Translations under genes and position numbers: made by a program | Notes under the pieces: generated by a model | Database searches by the model: none | Seen by the model: the letters and a program-made list of their open reading frames with translations, nothing else | What the model was told of the DNA's origin: nothing | Source of the DNA: a bacterium | Lineage (GTDB): Bacteria > Patescibacteriota > Minisyncoccia > Moranbacterales > UBA1568 | Assembly: GCA_021821305.1 (NCBI GenBank) | Contig: JAKACP010000001.1 | Span: forward strand, 468,349 to 532,348 | Direction: 5' to 3' | DNA length: 64,000 nucleotides | Part shown: piece by piece, positions 15,577 to 41,539 of the stretch | Layout of the letters: every line of letters starts with the position of its first letter | Numbering within the stretch: position 1 is the first letter of the stretch

Positions 15577-15727
15577 GCGGCGATGCAAGATTCGGAAACA
15601 AGTATTGTAGTAATCGGCATCAAGAGAAAATCGGACAGCGTACAATAAAATATCTCAGCGTCGTTTCCGTAATTCGCTCACAGGGGGATCTATGAGCCGG
15701 ACAGGGGACAGGTTTTTTGGAGGTGCC

Positions 15728-15782
15728 CAAAAAGACCGACGATCGTCAGCCCGTTTTCGGGTAACGGCCGTCGGTCTTTTTG
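15728..15782. terminator. long hairpin with flanking A/T runs (bidirectional terminator-like) downstream of the L,D-transpeptidase
   Basis: caaaaagaccgacg … cgtcggtctttttg (13-14 bp stem) with inner cccg-tttt-cggg mini-hairpin. Confidence 0.45.
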
Positions 15783-15892
15783 ATTCTCCATTTCTTTCTT
15801 CATTCGTAGCCTTTCGATCGAAGGGCAGGGCATCGGAGTGCACCCTATTTCGGTGCCCGGCTTTTTGATTGTTTGTCGGAAGGGTCTATCCG

Positions 15893-15914
15893 GACTTTTC
15901 CGACAGGCTCTCAG
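15893..15914 (+). promoter_or_regulatory. conserved 22-nt intergenic motif GACTTTTCCGACAGGCTCTCAG (copy 1 of 4)
   Basis: Near-identical to 41518-41539 and 28521-28542, partial at 62287-62305. Embedded mini-hairpin cgga-cuuu-uccg. 135 nt upstream of the first secreted repeat-protein gene. Confidence 0.4.
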
Positions 15915-16047
15915 GGGGCCTCGGTCGATCGGACAAATGCGCGAGGCAAAGAGGTGCAAGCGCCTCGGGCATTCTGTCTGAAAAGTATTCCCGTTCGGCG
16001 CGTCGCGGCGCGCGGAGCGGAGCACTAGGAAGGAAGGTGAACAGACT

Positions 16048-16563
16048 ATGAAAACAATGTTTATGGTTCTTCCGGCGCTCGCCCTCGCTTTCGCGTTCGC
16101 GGCTCCGGCATCGGCGAATGGTGATGGCCATTGGTGGATGCACTTCAACGATGAGCTCAATGTGCAGAGTTCGAACAACGCGAACGTATACAACGTCACG
16201 AAGGCGGAGAGCGACACGGGCGACAACTCGACGTTTCTCAACTATGGATTCGGCTCGGGGAATATCGTGACCGGCGCGGCTATGGCCGGTGCGGACTCGG
16301 GTCTCTTCGTGAACAGCAACATGACGACCCTCGGGGCGCCGTGTGACTGTTTCGACGACGTGACGATCACGAGCGCGAACAACGCGGTCGTCTACAATAA
16401 GACGAAGGCCGAGGCGGAAACCGGCGAGAATACCACCACGGGCAATGGTGGGTACTTCGATGACTGGTACTACGGTGGAGGGAGCGGCAATATCGTGACC
16501 GGCGCCGCGGTAGCGGGCGCTACGTCGTGGACAGTCGTCAACTCCAACGTGACGGGTTTCTAG
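16048..16563 (+). CDS. secreted repeat protein R1 (signal peptide plus 2 copies of a TG(D/E)N-containing repeat)
   Basis: Signal peptide MKTMFMVLPALALAFAFAAPASA. Two internal repeats: NANVYNVTKAESDTGDNST…GSGNIVTGAAMAG…VNSNMT and NAVVYNKTKAEAETGENTT…GSGNIVTGAAVAG…VNSNVT. Strong SD (aggaaggaagg). Confidence 0.7.
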   Translation: MKTMFMVLPALALAFAFAAPASANGDGHWWMHFNDELNVQSSNNANVYNVTKAESDTGDNSTFLNYGFGSGNIVTGAAMAGADSGLFVNSNMTTLGAPCDCFDDVTITSANNAVVYNKTKAEAETGENTTTGNGGYFDDWYYGGGSGNIVTGAAVAGATSWTVVNSNVTGF

Positions 16564-16643
16564 CCGATTTTTTCCAGGAGGCGGGGGCGTGAACCGCGGA
16601 TCATCGCCCCCGCGCTTCCGGAAAGGGAAAAAATATCCCGAGT

Positions 16644-17108
16644 ATGAATTTCAAGACCTTTTTCTTCGCTCTCGTATCCTTTCTCCTGTTTTCGAGCGGC
16701 GCGGATGCCGTGATGGTCATCGAGAACAGCGGACAGAATACGATCATCGAGTCGAGGACGAGCGCGGTCTCGGATACCGGCGGGAATAGCGGATCGGGAA
16801 ACATCGAGACCGGTGACGCCAAGGCGACGAGCGCGACCGAAGTGCGTTCCTCCGGTAGCGAGACGACGGTAAAGGCGGAAGCCGTGTCGGAAGCGGACGG
16901 GCAGGAATCATCCGTCAGTGCGGTCCAGGAGGGTCCGGGGACGGTCTCCGTAGAGGAGCAAGAAGGTGGCGCGGAGGCGCGGATCGACGTGTCGGTATCC
17001 GAGGAAAGCGCGGCTGGTGCGTCCTCGGAAGAGGCAACAGGAGTGTTCGAAAAAGTCGGGGCGTTCCTGTCGGGAATAGGGGATTTCATACGGTCTATCT
17101 TCGAATGA
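16644..17108 (+). CDS. secreted protein R2 (signal peptide, one TGGN-type repeat, Ser/Glu-rich tail)
   Basis: Signal peptide MNFKTFFFALVSFLLFSSGADA. VIENSGQNTIIESRTSAVSDTGGNSGSGNIETGDAKATSA matches the R1/R3 repeat. Confidence 0.65.
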   Translation: MNFKTFFFALVSFLLFSSGADAVMVIENSGQNTIIESRTSAVSDTGGNSGSGNIETGDAKATSATEVRSSGSETTVKAEAVSEADGQESSVSAVQEGPGTVSVEEQEGGAEARIDVSVSEESAAGASSEEATGVFEKVGAFLSGIGDFIRSIFE

Positions 17109-17126
17109 TTTCATGAGAAAGAGAGT

Positions 17127-19874
17127 ATGTCGTCCGAACGGATGCGATATGTCTACGCGGCAAGCAGAGGGCAGAGGATATATTTCTCGCCCCGTTGGTC
17201 GCGCCCCGTTTCTCCGAGGAGGGTCTCTTGGATCCTCCCCGCGTACGCGCGGGCAGTTTTTCTGAAAAAATCCTTCATCATAAGCCTTTCTTTGGCTGTC
17301 GCGTTTTATCCCATGGCGCCGATGGCCGCGGTCGCGGACGATACCGCTCCGGAAAGCGAGCCCGTCCTTGAGTCCGAGTCACCGGAAGCGGATCCGGAAG
17401 AAGCGCCTGCGGAGGAGACTGCGGAGAAAGAACCTACTGAAGAGACTCCGGAAGAAGCACCGGCGGAAGAAGAAGCGGCACCCGAGAAGGTCGTCGAACC
17501 CGATGCCGAACCTGATATGGCTGTAACCGCGTCGTCGGAACCGGAAGTCGCGCCGGACCCGGAGGCGGAGCCGGAAACATCGGAAGCGTCTCCCTGTGAC
17601 GAGGGAGCGCCAGCGGATGAACATGAAGTGCCAGTGGATGGACATGAGGACGGCACGGTCATCGAGAGCTGTAACGAAGCCGAAACGGAGAGTGATGTGA
17701 CAGCCTCATCCGATACCGGTGAAAATGCCATCGTCATCGAGGAGGGTGATCCCGTCGGAGAGGAGGAAGGAACTGATACCGATGAATCGACGGAAGCGGA
17801 TACCGTGAGTGCCGCCGCCGAACCCGCCGTCGCGGAAGTCGCTCCGGATGAGGGCGTCGATTCCGCTATCGACACCGGCGATGCCGGCGCGACCGCCGTG
17901 CTCGTCCAGGACGTGAATACCGATATCGTGGGGAATGATGTCGACAAGGAAGTGATCGTGGCGGACGAGGAGACGGGAGATATCGACCTGCTCGAGGCAT
18001 TCGTCGGCACGGAGGAGGAAAATGGAGAAGCGGCGGAAACGAATCAGCCCGGGGAAACGGATGGATCCGGTGGCGGGGTCGCGGTCGTGAACGGCAATGA
18101 GGCCACCGTCGAGAATACCGTCGTCGCGACAGCCGAGACCGGGGACAACTCGATCGAGGGCGGCGACGGGGCGGCCATCGATACCGGGGACGCTTCCGCG
18201 CTCGCGGTGGCGGTCAACGTCGTCAACACCACGCTCGTCGGGTCCAACGGACTCCTCGCCATCGTCAATATTGTCGGCGACTATGCCGGCGATGTCATTT
18301 TGCCCGGCGAGGGCCTGCTCTCCTTCGGCGGAGGCGACCCGAGTCTGGAGACCGTCGAGAACGGGAACGAGGCGACCATCGAGAATACGGTCACGGCATC
18401 CGCCGATACGGGCGGCAATACGATCGAGGGTTCCGGCGACGCATCCATCGAGACGGGCGATGCGGTCGCCGTGGCGGAAAGCGATACCATCGCCAATACG
18501 AATTTCGTCGGCGACAACTGGCTTGTCGTCGTGGTCAATGTGTTCGGTGAATGGCTGGGCGGCATCGTCGACGGCGAGGATGCGGATGGCGACGGAGTCA
18601 TCGGATTCCTCTTCGGCGGCGGAGGGGAGAGCGATGGTTGCGACGCGGAGTGCGGCGATATCGTGTCGGTCTCGGGCAAGAACGTCGCCTATGTGGTCAA
18701 CACCGTCTCGGCGAGCGCGGACACGGGCGGCAACACCATCACCAGCGCGGACGATGCGTCGATCGTGACCGGAAACGCCTCCGCGACCGCCGCCGCGTTC
18801 AACTTCGTGAACAACAATATCGTCGGGCATAACTGGCTCCTCGCGGTCATCAACGTCTTCGGAAGCTGGGGTGGCAACCTCGTCTTCGCCTATCCGGACC
18901 TCTCGACCTCGGTCAGCGACGGGAGAGAGACCGCACTTCCCGGCGACACCCTCGAATATGTCGTCCGGGTCGAAAACGGCGGCATGGCCGACGCGGAGGG
19001 TGTGTCGGTGGCATTCCGGATTCCGGGATCATCCGAATACCGGTCCGCTTCCGACGGGGCGGAGCGCAACGGCGACACGGTCATCTGGACGCTTTCATCT
19101 CTGAAAAAAGGCGAAAGTAAGGGATTTACCGTGACGGTGGCAGTGGACGGCGGGACACCTGACGGAGCCGAGCTCCGCGCATACGCGCAGGCGGGGACGG
19201 ATACCGCCGAGAAGCATCCGGAGAACAACGTCTCAGACGACGAGACGACCGTCGATATCCCCGATGCGGTCATCACGCAGATCGACGCGGAATACGTTGA
19301 TGGAAACTCTTATCACACTGGGCTCCGCGTGAAGCGGAGTAAACCCGATGGCGCGTTCCGAGGCGGGGACACGGTCACGCATCGGATCACCGTCGAGAAC
19401 ACCGGCAAGAATCCAGCCTACGATGTCGTGGCGGAGGACTCGTTCGAGACACCCGACGGTACGCTTATCGCCACGCTCGAATGGAACATAGGCGGAATCG
19501 ACTCGGGCAAGGGCGTGCTCATCGAATACACGATCGCCATCCCGAACCAGGTCGGAGCCGGACAGTATCGCTACACCGCCCGTGCCGAGGGCAAACAGTA
19601 CGATGACGATGATATACGGTCCAAGAAGGCCTATGCCACGCTCACCATCGTCGGGTCCGCCTTCGCCGGGGCGTTCGGTGCGGAGACGGTCGAAGCGGCA
19701 TCGCCGGAAGACGTGACGATCCCGGGCGAAGTGCAGGGCGCGCAGGCCGCGACGGTCGGGGAGGTCGTCGGGAACGGGAAGTTCCCGCTCTGGATGCTTC
19801 TTCTCTCCGGGCTCGCCTATTTCCTCATGATCAACTGGTCGTTCTTCCCGAAAACTCACCGGAGAATCATATGA
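17127..19874 (+). CDS. large cell-surface protein R3: acidic Pro/Glu-rich linker, 3 tandem TG(D/G)N repeats, DUF11-like conserved-repeat domains, C-terminal hydrophobic anchor
   Basis: Three ~95-aa repeats (ENTVVATAETGDNSIEGGDGAAIDTGDASALAVAVNVVNTTLVG / ENTVTASADTGGNTIEGSGDASIETGDAVAVAESDTIANTNFVG / VNTVSASADTGGNTITSADDASIVTGNASATAAAFNFVNNNIVG). Then TLEYVVRVENGGMADAEGVSVAFRIP and VTHRITVENTGKNPAYDVVAED (DUF11-like). C-terminal PLWMLLLSGLAYFLMINWSFFPKTHRRII. True start uncertain (no start codon directly before the hydrophobic segment). Confidence 0.75.
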   Translation: MSSERMRYVYAASRGQRIYFSPRWSRPVSPRRVSWILPAYARAVFLKKSFIISLSLAVAFYPMAPMAAVADDTAPESEPVLESESPEADPEEAPAEETAEKEPTEETPEEAPAEEEAAPEKVVEPDAEPDMAVTASSEPEVAPDPEAEPETSEASPCDEGAPADEHEVPVDGHEDGTVIESCNEAETESDVTASSDTGENAIVIEEGDPVGEEEGTDTDESTEADTVSAAAEPAVAEVAPDEGVDSAIDTGDAGATAVLVQDVNTDIVGNDVDKEVIVADEETGDIDLLEAFVGTEEENGEAAETNQPGETDGSGGGVAVVNGNEATVENTVVATAETGDNSIEGGDGAAIDTGDASALAVAVNVVNTTLVGSNGLLAIVNIVGDYAGDVILPGEGLLSFGGGDPSLETVENGNEATIENTVTASADTGGNTIEGSGDASIETGDAVAVAESDTIANTNFVGDNWLVVVVNVFGEWLGGIVDGEDADGDGVIGFLFGGGGESDGCDAECGDIVSVSGKNVAYVVNTVSASADTGGNTITSADDASIVTGNASATAAAFNFVNNNIVGHNWLLAVINVFGSWGGNLVFAYPDLSTSVSDGRETALPGDTLEYVVRVENGGMADAEGVSVAFRIPGSSEYRSASDGAERNGDTVIWTLSSLKKGESKGFTVTVAVDGGTPDGAELRAYAQAGTDTAEKHPENNVSDDETTVDIPDAVITQIDAEYVDGNSYHTGLRVKRSKPDGAFRGGDTVTHRITVENTGKNPAYDVVAEDSFETPDGTLIATLEWNIGGIDSGKGVLIEYTIAIPNQVGAGQYRYTARAEGKQYDDDDIRSKKAYATLTIVGSAFAGAFGAETVEAASPEDVTIPGEVQGAQAATVGEVVGNGKFPLWMLLLSGLAYFLMINWSFFPKTHRRII
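18080..18880 (+). repeat. three tandem protein-level repeats (~280-300 nt period) inside R3
   Basis: Repeat cores at about 18109, 18380 and 18695 (gagaataccgtc…accggggacaac / gagaatacggtc…acgggcggcaat / aacaccgtctcg…acgggcggcaac). Confidence 0.6.
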
Positions 19875-20065
19875 GTGAAAATCGTACAAACGTGAACCTA
19901 TCGGGATGGCGGACGATATTCGTCCCGTTGCTCGTGACCGTGGCCGCGATCGCGTTTTGGATGACATATTACGGTTCCATCGGTTGGTGGCCGTTCGTCC
20001 TCTTCGTCATCTGGGTGGTGCAATACACGCGATTTTCGCAGAGGCGGAGGTCTTCGGATGATTGA
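19871..20065 (+). CDS. small 2-TM membrane protein (64 aa), hypothetical; start overlaps R3 stop (ATGA)
   Basis: MSENRTNVNLSGWRTIFVPLLVTVAAIAFWMTYYGSIGWWPFVLFVIWVVQY…; translationally coupled geometry. Confidence 0.4.
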   Translation: MSENRTNVNLSGWRTIFVPLLVTVAAIAFWMTYYGSIGWWPFVLFVIWVVQYTRFSQRRRSSDD

Positions 20066-28332: not shown

Positions 28333-28520
28333 GGATGCTCTCCTTTTGTGTCAGAGGGTTGTCAAAGAAACTGCTAAGAGCCTGTTGAAAAAGTCCGTAT
28401 TCTGCTGCAATCCCGGAATTCCGGCTGCAAAATCCGTGCATCTCGTCGGGTTATATTCCATATAGCCCTCCTCCATCCCCGAATTTTTCGCTCGGGATTC
28501 CAGGATTTCGCGACGAAAGA

Positions 28521-41515: not shown

Positions 41516-41517
41516 GG

Positions 41518-41539
41518 GACTTTCCCGACAGGCTCTCAG
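41518..41539 (+). promoter_or_regulatory. conserved 22-nt intergenic motif GACTTTCCCGACAGGCTCTCAG (copy 2 of 4), 57 nt upstream of ftsA
   Basis: Family consensus with ggga-cuu-uccc mini-hairpin; 3 nt after the pfkB stop. Confidence 0.4.

Follow-up and report, generated by a model that had tools for sequence, protein, structure and literature searches.

An operon of secreted repeat proteins conserved across Patescibacteria and its possible role in the cell envelope

Four consecutive genes, here called R1, R2, R3 and mini, are found at positions 16048-20065 of a 64,000-nucleotide stretch (the window) of contig JAKACP010000001.1, which belongs to a bacterium of the Moranbacterales (Patescibacteriota). 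They code for three secreted proteins sharing a repeat and for a small membrane protein. The arrangement of a long-form repeat protein preceded by short-form paralogues recurs in many lineages of the Candidate Phyla Radiation (CPR). On balance, we lean towards the operon being a CPR-conserved cell-envelope system, in which R3 and the mini protein would constitute an anchored scaffold, with R1 and R2 as its secreted partners, a function read from the genes. It is probably a core, unstudied part of the CPR cell surface.

Much of bacterial diversity belongs to the Patescibacteria, which live attached to other cells. Beyond type IV pili, we know of almost nothing on their surface proteins. Surface repeat-protein systems are known in kind; the repeat and its fold are undescribed and the operon of paralogues is specific to CPR. 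The family provides concrete targets to learn what coats CPR cells or tethers them to their hosts, and the repeat merits inclusion in Pfam and an experimental structure.

The locus

The coordinates given for the four genes in the original prediction match the open reading frames (ORFs) exactly.

16048-16563, plus strand: R1, secreted short-form protein of 171 amino acids
16644-17108, plus strand: R2, secreted protein of 154 amino acids
17127-19874, plus strand: R3, long-form anchored protein of 915 amino acids
19871-20065, plus strand: mini gene, 64 amino acids, whose ATG overlaps the R3 TGA as ATGA

The signal-like N-termini that had been claimed are also present, R1, R2 and R3 each starting with a hydrophobic segment. 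By-eye cleavage sites follow these segments, namely ASA in R1, ADA in R2 and AVA in R3, and the three mature proteins are all acidic, with an isoelectric point (pI) of about 4. The nucleotide identity to the related loci L001 and L003 amounts to 76% for R1, 68% for R2 and 71-79% for R3, and to 84-88% for the neighboring genes. Such a faster divergence than that of housekeeping neighbors is consistent with proteins exposed at the cell surface. The gene order of L001 is that of the window: penicillin-binding protein (PBP), a gene of 100 amino acids, CoA-binding protein, YkuD, R1, R2, R3 and mini. L003 agrees with it as far as the beginning of R3, at which point the contig ends.

The repeat unit

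In order to avoid circularity, an independent unit profile of 75 positions was built exclusively from homologues that lie outside the window (412 units). This profile recovered three strong units in R3 (residues 328-402, 418-492 and 523-597, 64-72 bits) and a degenerate one at residues 227-297 (19.8 bits), whose first half, around residue 197, is parted from the remainder by an acidic insertion. Two units were found in R1 (21.8 and 20.7 bits, with a whole-protein E-value of 1.4e-9). These scores rule out that the repeat is a chance similarity between low-complexity sequences. R2 was not detected by the independent profile, and with a profile derived from the three units of R3, R1 scored 33.6 bits and R2 just 8 bits. 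The alignment of eight R2 orthologues nevertheless matched the unit profile in hhalign with 92.4% probability (E 5e-7, 43 columns), so that R2 is read as carrying one diverged unit, seen at the profile-profile level only. No further ORF within the 64 kb scored with the independent profile. On this evidence, R1, R2 and R3 are paralogues through the repeat.

The repeat was originally described as 45-55 amino acids long and shared by all three proteins. The sharing is clear for R1 and R3 and is visible for R2 in the profile-profile comparison. The length has to be corrected: what had been described is the short form, which covers profile positions 1-52, and the full R3 unit is a long form of 75-90 amino acids. 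The long form extends into a hydrophobic strand, NWLLxVVNVFGxWxG, and this third strand is missing from the units of R1 and R2. The proposed counts of two units in R1 and one in R2 hold, the latter at the profile-profile level, and the three tandem units announced for R3 become three intact units and a fourth that is split and degenerate.

An amphipathic pattern characterizes the first long strand across the 412 units, with conserved odd positions (N/A/I/N/L/L/A) and polar, variable even positions. In the second long strand, both faces are conserved (A/V/A/V/N/A and N/x/N/L/F/N), and in the third both are apolar. Eight Asn positions are 71-100% conserved, as are several Gly. As judged from this strand-face pattern, the column statistics would be consistent with a layered, stacked packing and Asn ladders.

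Absence of a known family or fold

No match for the repeat was obtained in Pfam and NCBIfam, whether with all proteins or with 24 isolated units at E-values up to 10; the curlin repeat was among the families without a Pfam match to R1, R2, R3 or the 24 units. These scans of the proteins also revealed no SLH, CWB2 or other S-layer domain. Searches of PDB sequences with the repeat region and the unit profile returned nothing, the best hits, LpqE (E 0.03) and P-II (E 0.5), being taken as chance. The original prediction could not assign the repeat to a named domain family and proposed searches of this sort; its statement is upheld in Pfam, NCBIfam and PDB sequences. The repeat is apparently new to every library tried and the "unknown type" stands.

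It had also been proposed to look for a beta-solenoid or fibre fold in a structural model. The AlphaFold2 model of R3 305-600, computed from an alignment of 129 sequences, is all-beta, with a mean predicted local distance difference test (pLDDT) of 79, values above 90 inside the units and a predicted template modeling score (pTM) of 0.74. Reaching this pTM despite low-confidence linkers would support a rigid multi-unit R3 body. The all-beta character was thereby found, and a significant structural neighbor was not: Foldseek comparison of the model with PDB and BFVD gave nothing at E <= 0.001, with TM-scores of about 0.1. The non-significant neighbors are nearly all beta-solenoids or functional amyloids.

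Distribution and conservation of the operon

An exhaustive HMMER search with the unit profile was conducted, the figures being clusters at 50% identity, out of 1.84 billion. The repeat family comprises at least 3,415 clusters at E <= 1e-3, 2,330 at 1e-10 and 1,225 at 1e-30. A word-indexed search with the R3 repeats retrieved 11 relatives; a profile search retrieved more than 651, mostly of 700-780 amino acids and all annotated as "hypothetical". None of them bears a credible Pfam domain, one of the 120 relatives listed having a sub-threshold match to PF22251. Viral contigs yielded no relatives.

Scanning of species-representative genomes gave 249 confirmed loci, of which 80 were kept. All informatively named members of these 80 loci are Patescibacteria, and the lineages include Morani-, Zambryski-, Giovannoni-, Ryan-, Woese-, Levy-, Davies-, Gottesman-, Ames-, Chisholm-, Doudna- and Saccharibacteria. 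L004 and L005 stand closest, with 77-78% identity, L005 being assigned to Candidatus Moraniibacteriota. The R2 and mini proteins of the window itself are on record from an NCBI contig and from several metagenomes. From this distribution, the operon appears near-universal in CPR.

Each locus held one long-form gene, and a long-form protein with same-strand short-form paralogues was found across all 84 sequences. Where the upstream flank was sufficient (n=72), a short-form paralogue was located directly upstream of the long-form gene and on the same strand in 66 loci. The co-conservation of the module is thereby borne out beyond close relatives, and the paralogous trio that had been noticed, with the short R1 and R2 ahead of the long R3, follows a recurring pattern. 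The wide co-conservation also strengthens the proposal of a dedicated surface assembly, whose identity as an S-layer, an adhesin or a fibre stays conjectural.

Two main layouts were observed. In Parcubacteria and Moranbacteria, the long-form protein measures 800-1,280 amino acids and comes after one or two small short-form proteins; in the window and the three relatives tested, it has DUF11 domains and a C-terminal transmembrane (TM) segment. In Microgenomates, the order is A (about 430 amino acids, four short units), B (about 750 amino acids, four or five long units, ending with INLAW, a TM segment and KKR), C (about 390 amino acids, three short units) and a sortase. In 3/5 inspected loci, C ends with LPATG, LPISG or LPVTG followed by a TM segment and a basic tail. 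The sortase (PF04203, E 5e-29) comes after C; of the 41 loci in which it was found, nearly all are of the Microgenomates type. This pattern is consistent with the published observation of a near-ubiquitous sortase in Microgenomates and a patchy occurrence in other CPR (PMC6744442). No CPR sortase-linked or S-layer protein of this kind was found described in the literature.

Other genes accompany the operon in part of the loci. In L017 (1842-9459) and about 40 similar loci of the Microgenomates type, three genes without Pfam match stand upstream (about 162 amino acids, about 273 amino acids with one TM segment and about 71 amino acids). In L011 (8288-8803), L015 and about 14 other loci of the Parcubacteria type, the gene right after the long-form one, in the place of mini, codes for a secreted CAP/SCP protein (PF00188).

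Architecture of R3 and of the mini protein

R3 is composed of the following parts, all on the plus strand.

17127-17336, plus strand: N-terminus, with a basic extension of 45 amino acids (YFSPRWSRPV..RRVSWILPAYARAVFLKK), then the hydrophobic segment and AVA, with DD after the putative cleavage site
17337-17654, plus strand: acidic region, residues 71-176 (29% Glu, 17% Pro, 16% Ala)
17655-18017, plus strand: degenerate split unit, residues 177-297, with R3-unit profile matches at 177-218 and 213-289
18078-18926, plus strand: three intact long-form units, residues 318-404, 407-500 and 513-600
18900-19619, plus strand: two DUF11/CLIPPER beta-sandwich domains (Pfam/NCBIfam), residues 592-704 and 735-831
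19779-19874, plus strand: C-terminal TM segment PLWMLLLSGLAYFLMINWSFF, basic tail PKTHRRII and stop

The basic extension (17127-17261) is conserved as a protein sequence in L001, L003, L004 and L005. For this reason, 17127 is the true start, and the possibility of a mis-called start was rejected, even though some gene callers begin R3 62 residues later (853 amino acids). The extension was found in no other ORF examined, and the idea of a sorting tag shared by several proteins was accordingly dropped. It could be an extended signal peptide or the cytoplasmic tail of an uncleaved anchor.

The acidic Pro/Glu-rich region reported in the original prediction is a measured feature of composition, and the two DUF11-like domains it described are equally real. 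PF01345 matches residues 592-704 with an E-value of 8.7e-17 and 61.9 bits against a gathering threshold of 24.6, in two stretches. The second domain (735-831) is matched by NPCBM_assoc, DUF7507 and TIGR01451 (42.8 bits against 24), and a CARDB match also falls in this DUF11/CLIPPER region. DUF11 is no longer a domain without function, having been described as the CLIPPER stalk domain of surface fibrillar adhesins, in which the Lys-Asn isopeptide bond with a catalytic Asp is not universal (PMC12617251). By eye, the isopeptide residues do not seem to be conserved: domain 1 of R3 has Ser at the place of Lys, and the late-strand Asn was seen in neither domain. A PDB sequence search with R3 585-840 gave nothing to align.

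The hydrophobic segment and basic tail that had been likened to a sorting or anchor signal are present at the C-terminus, which reads ...GNGKFPLWMLLLSGLAYFLMINWSFFPKTHRRII. The sorting part of the claim did not stand: there is no LPXTG in R3, and a tblastn search of the 64 kb with a CPR sortase gave nothing below E 1.4. For both reasons, the R3 C-terminus reads as a plain membrane anchor and not as a sortase signal. A V(L/Q)GA-type motif (GEVQGAQ in the window, 19716-19740) precedes the C-terminal TM segment by 15-30 residues; it is shared by many long-form proteins of the Parcubacteria type and by at least one of Microgenomates.

The coupling of R3 to a small membrane protein is supported by the ATGA overlap and by conservation. 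Homologues of mini, 60-69 amino acids long, directly follow the R3 homologue in L001, L004, L005, L006, L007 and L010, with the motif WR..GVPIL...FW..YY...WWP..LF.IW..HY. The mini protein is basic (pI 10.2) and has two aromatic-rich hydrophobic segments. Its gene is kept in the Moranbacteria-like clade, down to about 40% R3 identity. The R3 orthologues of mini-bearing loci have in common a Trp-rich (L/F)P(L/I/W)W...NWS motif, and mini was found only beside this Trp-rich type of TM segment. This exclusive co-occurrence suggests that the R3 TM helix and the two mini helices may pack together.

R1 and R2

The two small proteins are organized as follows.

16048-16563, plus strand: R1, with a signal peptide (residues 1-24), short unit 1 (37-96), PCDCFDD and short unit 2 (105-171)
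16644-17108, plus strand: R2, with a signal peptide (residues 1-22), one short unit (about 23-70), an acidic Ser/Glu-rich middle and an amphipathic C-terminus GVFEKVGAFLSGIGDFIRSIFE

Both are devoid of a C-terminal hydrophobic stretch and of an anchor of their own. In R1, the PCDCFDD between the units is conserved, and the protein ends at ...NSNVTGF, where the third strand would begin, with a C-terminus that is invariant among R1 orthologues. These are 64-71% identical, one further orthologue being at 42-46%. GGAAGGAAGG is located upstream of the R1 ATG. An exact look-up of the R1 sequence returned no record because the database entries begin five residues later. R2 orthologues were identified in L001, L003, L005, L006, L007, L023 and L061. 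The R1-R2 spacer (16564-16643) is 85-93% identical to that of L001/L003, above either flanking gene, and forms a GC-rich hairpin GGCGGGGGCG...CGCCCCCGC with no T-run.

A model for the assembly and its alternatives

In the model that we favor, R3 would be exported through its N-terminal signal and tethered by its C-terminal helix, with which the two segments of the mini protein would be bundled. The two DUF11/CLIPPER domains and a linker of 45 amino acids would carry the repeat body through the wall, off the membrane. The four long units would make one rigid beta body, with the flexible acidic Pro/Glu-rich region at its far end. R1 (two short units) and R2 (one short unit, acidic region and amphipathic end) would be secreted and unanchored, and would dock on or extend the R3 body by like-with-like beta contacts, giving a surface fibre or layer. 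It is from the gene products that we infer the export and topology, the packing of the units, the association of R1 and R2 with R3 and the role of mini. The logic recalls Sulfolobus SlaA/SlaB and Bacillus TasA/TapA, where an anchored base protein is co-encoded with unanchored partners; it is an analogy of logic only, with no relation of sequence or fold.

Several observations weigh against this model. R2 is absent in the close relative L004 and is for this reason dispensable. Short and long units do not occur in a simple ratio. The predicted R1 model has a pLDDT of 47, its fold not being readable, and the alignment behind the R3 model includes multi-repeat homologues that are possibly out of register. 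The long basic N-terminus of R3 could make its signal an uncleaved anchor, the cleavage having been read by eye. Finally, some third-party assemblies that contain the operon are labeled "uncultured Gammaproteobacteria", "Bdellovibrionales" or "Pseudomonadales"; these labels are regarded as unreliable and as mislabels because the operon in those assemblies is identical in layout.

R1, R2 and R3 might instead be independent surface adhesins, each acting alone on, for example, host ligands, with the repeat as a binding or spacer module, which we consider possible although doubtful. CPR bacteria are episymbionts and need adhesins. R1-R3 evolve faster than their housekeeping neighbors, and the relative L024 adds HYR and PG_binding_1 domains. 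R3 has the layout of a fibrillar adhesin: like the CLIPPER fibrillar adhesins, it presents an N-terminal signal, extracellular repeats, a beta-sandwich stalk near the anchor and a C-terminal anchor, but the former have a long tandem stalk, where R3 has two domains, and a known adhesive distal domain, and the anchor of R3 is a plain TM segment (PMC12617251). CPR-enriched families have moreover been tied to cell-cell interaction (PMC6744442). Yet R1 and R2 lack an anchor, and the conserved positions of the repeat are structural (Asn, Gly, small apolar) and not those of a variable surface. Independent adhesins normally vary in copy number and position, and the same-strand pairing of short and long forms in 66/72 loci across distant CPR would be unusual for them.

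The remaining alternatives are polymers or lattices. It is unlikely that the operon codes for a curli-like amyloid, with R3 as nucleator (CsgB-like), R1 as major subunit (CsgA-like) and R2 capping or adapting. As for curli CsgA/CsgB and Fap, one operon combines a cell-associated and a secreted paralogue of the same repeat, with conserved Asn; the Asn/Gln/Gly/Ala-rich strand-turn-strand pattern and its near-invariant Asn, and an R1 not confidently folded as a monomer, also agree with this explanation. Against it, the structural matches are far below significance and no Pfam match exists, curlin repeat included. The R3 unit has three long strands and 75-90 amino acids, and curli repeats are far shorter. 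The cell is monoderm and has no outer-membrane channel, so that CsgG-like machinery is not expected. A related and rather unlikely proposal is that the repeat is a new beta-solenoid-type fold and the operon a CPR-wide self-templating fibre or sheath, in which the long form would nucleate its short-form paralogues, as a monoderm counterpart of curli. If this were true, it would supply a structural part of the CPR envelope or attachment apparatus that has long been missing. An S-layer or envelope sheath, whose anchored and secreted paralogues would form a two-component lattice like Sulfolobus SlaB/SlaA, is quite unlikely: the operon's apparent near-universality in CPR, the single long-form gene per locus, the anchored stalk with unanchored partners and the acidity of the proteins are in its favor, but known S-layer domains such as SLH and CWB2 are absent and R1, with 15 kDa, is small for a lattice former. 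Least probable by far is a sortase-assembled pilus of covalently polymerized pilins. The sortase at the end of the Microgenomates operon, its LPATG/LPISG/LPVTG paralogue in 3/5 loci and the tripartite C-terminus (motif, hydrophobic segment, basic tail) do resemble Gram-positive sortase-dependent surface proteins and pili. The window, on the contrary, has no sortase in 64 kb and no LPXTG in R1-R3, and the repeat is not CnaA/CnaB, nor was any CnaB or pilin-motif domain seen. Even in Microgenomates, two of the three paralogues are without the signal, a pattern more in line with wall anchoring than with polymerization.

The leader and its conserved motif

The region preceding R1 was originally described as a hairpin-rich leader with a conserved motif of 22 nucleotides. 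Both descriptions were confirmed, the former by hairpins and terminator-like elements, the latter by three copies of the motif in the window against 0 expected by chance.

15577-16047, plus strand: non-coding leader of 471 nucleotides between the YkuD L,D-transpeptidase gene and R1
15728-15782, no strand assigned: palindromic hairpin I1, with arms of 24 nucleotides (83% complementary) and A-run/T-run flanks, bidirectional terminator-like
15828-15868, plus strand: second terminator-like hairpin, a 13-bp stem then GGCTTTTTGA, conserved in five genomes
15892-15914, plus strand: motif GGACTTTTCCGACAGGCTCTCAG, 22-23 nucleotides, upstream of R1

The leader is unusually conserved. It is 84-86% identical to that of L001/L003, where YkuD reaches 84-85% and PBP 88%, and 75-78% identical to that of L004/L005, where PBP and YkuD are at about 70-72%. 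The fast-evolving R1-R3 genes adjoin a strongly conserved leader, which suggests a surface structure that is under selection and whose expression is regulated. The I1 hairpin is nearly invariant in five genomes, and the 5' untranslated region within the leader also holds GC-rich hairpins. Covariation concerns 5 of 76 predicted pairs in five sequences, a thin sample. The block 15650-15790 is almost invariant even in L004/L005 and contains a hairpin with two covarying pairs followed by a terminator-like stem of 25 bp; absent from Rfam, it is a candidate small RNA or attenuator. The Rfam scan of the window detected a tRNA-Ala only, and a permissive scan of the leader gave a sub-threshold RybB-like match that corresponds to the terminator hairpin.

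The copies of GGACTTTTCCGACAGGCTCTCAG are located at 15892-15914 (plus), 41517-41539 (plus) and 28374-28396 (minus), each upstream of a gene in the same orientation: R1, an FtsA-like gene (41598) and the minus-strand gene 28332, with a fatty-acid-desaturase match. The motif has the appearance of a promoter or operator element common to these genes. Its 5' half forms the 3' arm of a hairpin, in the stem of which compensatory changes are seen among five genomes. Its core resembles the palindrome AGGCT-N3-AGCCT. In L005, an insertion of about 160 nucleotides falls exactly at GACAGGCT.

Genes downstream of the operon

Directly 3' of mini, the segment 20161-24889 codes for a secreted protein of 177 amino acids belonging to no family, a GT2 glycosyltransferase of 862 amino acids (Glyco_trans_2_3, with a weak chitin-synthase match) and a GH18-like protein bearing a CBM5/12 module. 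Its GC content is 0.51-0.54, against 0.59-0.62 in the surroundings. The segment looks like an inserted polysaccharide island, possibly chitin-like. The syntenic L001 is devoid of these genes, a cation-efflux gene coming directly after the operon.

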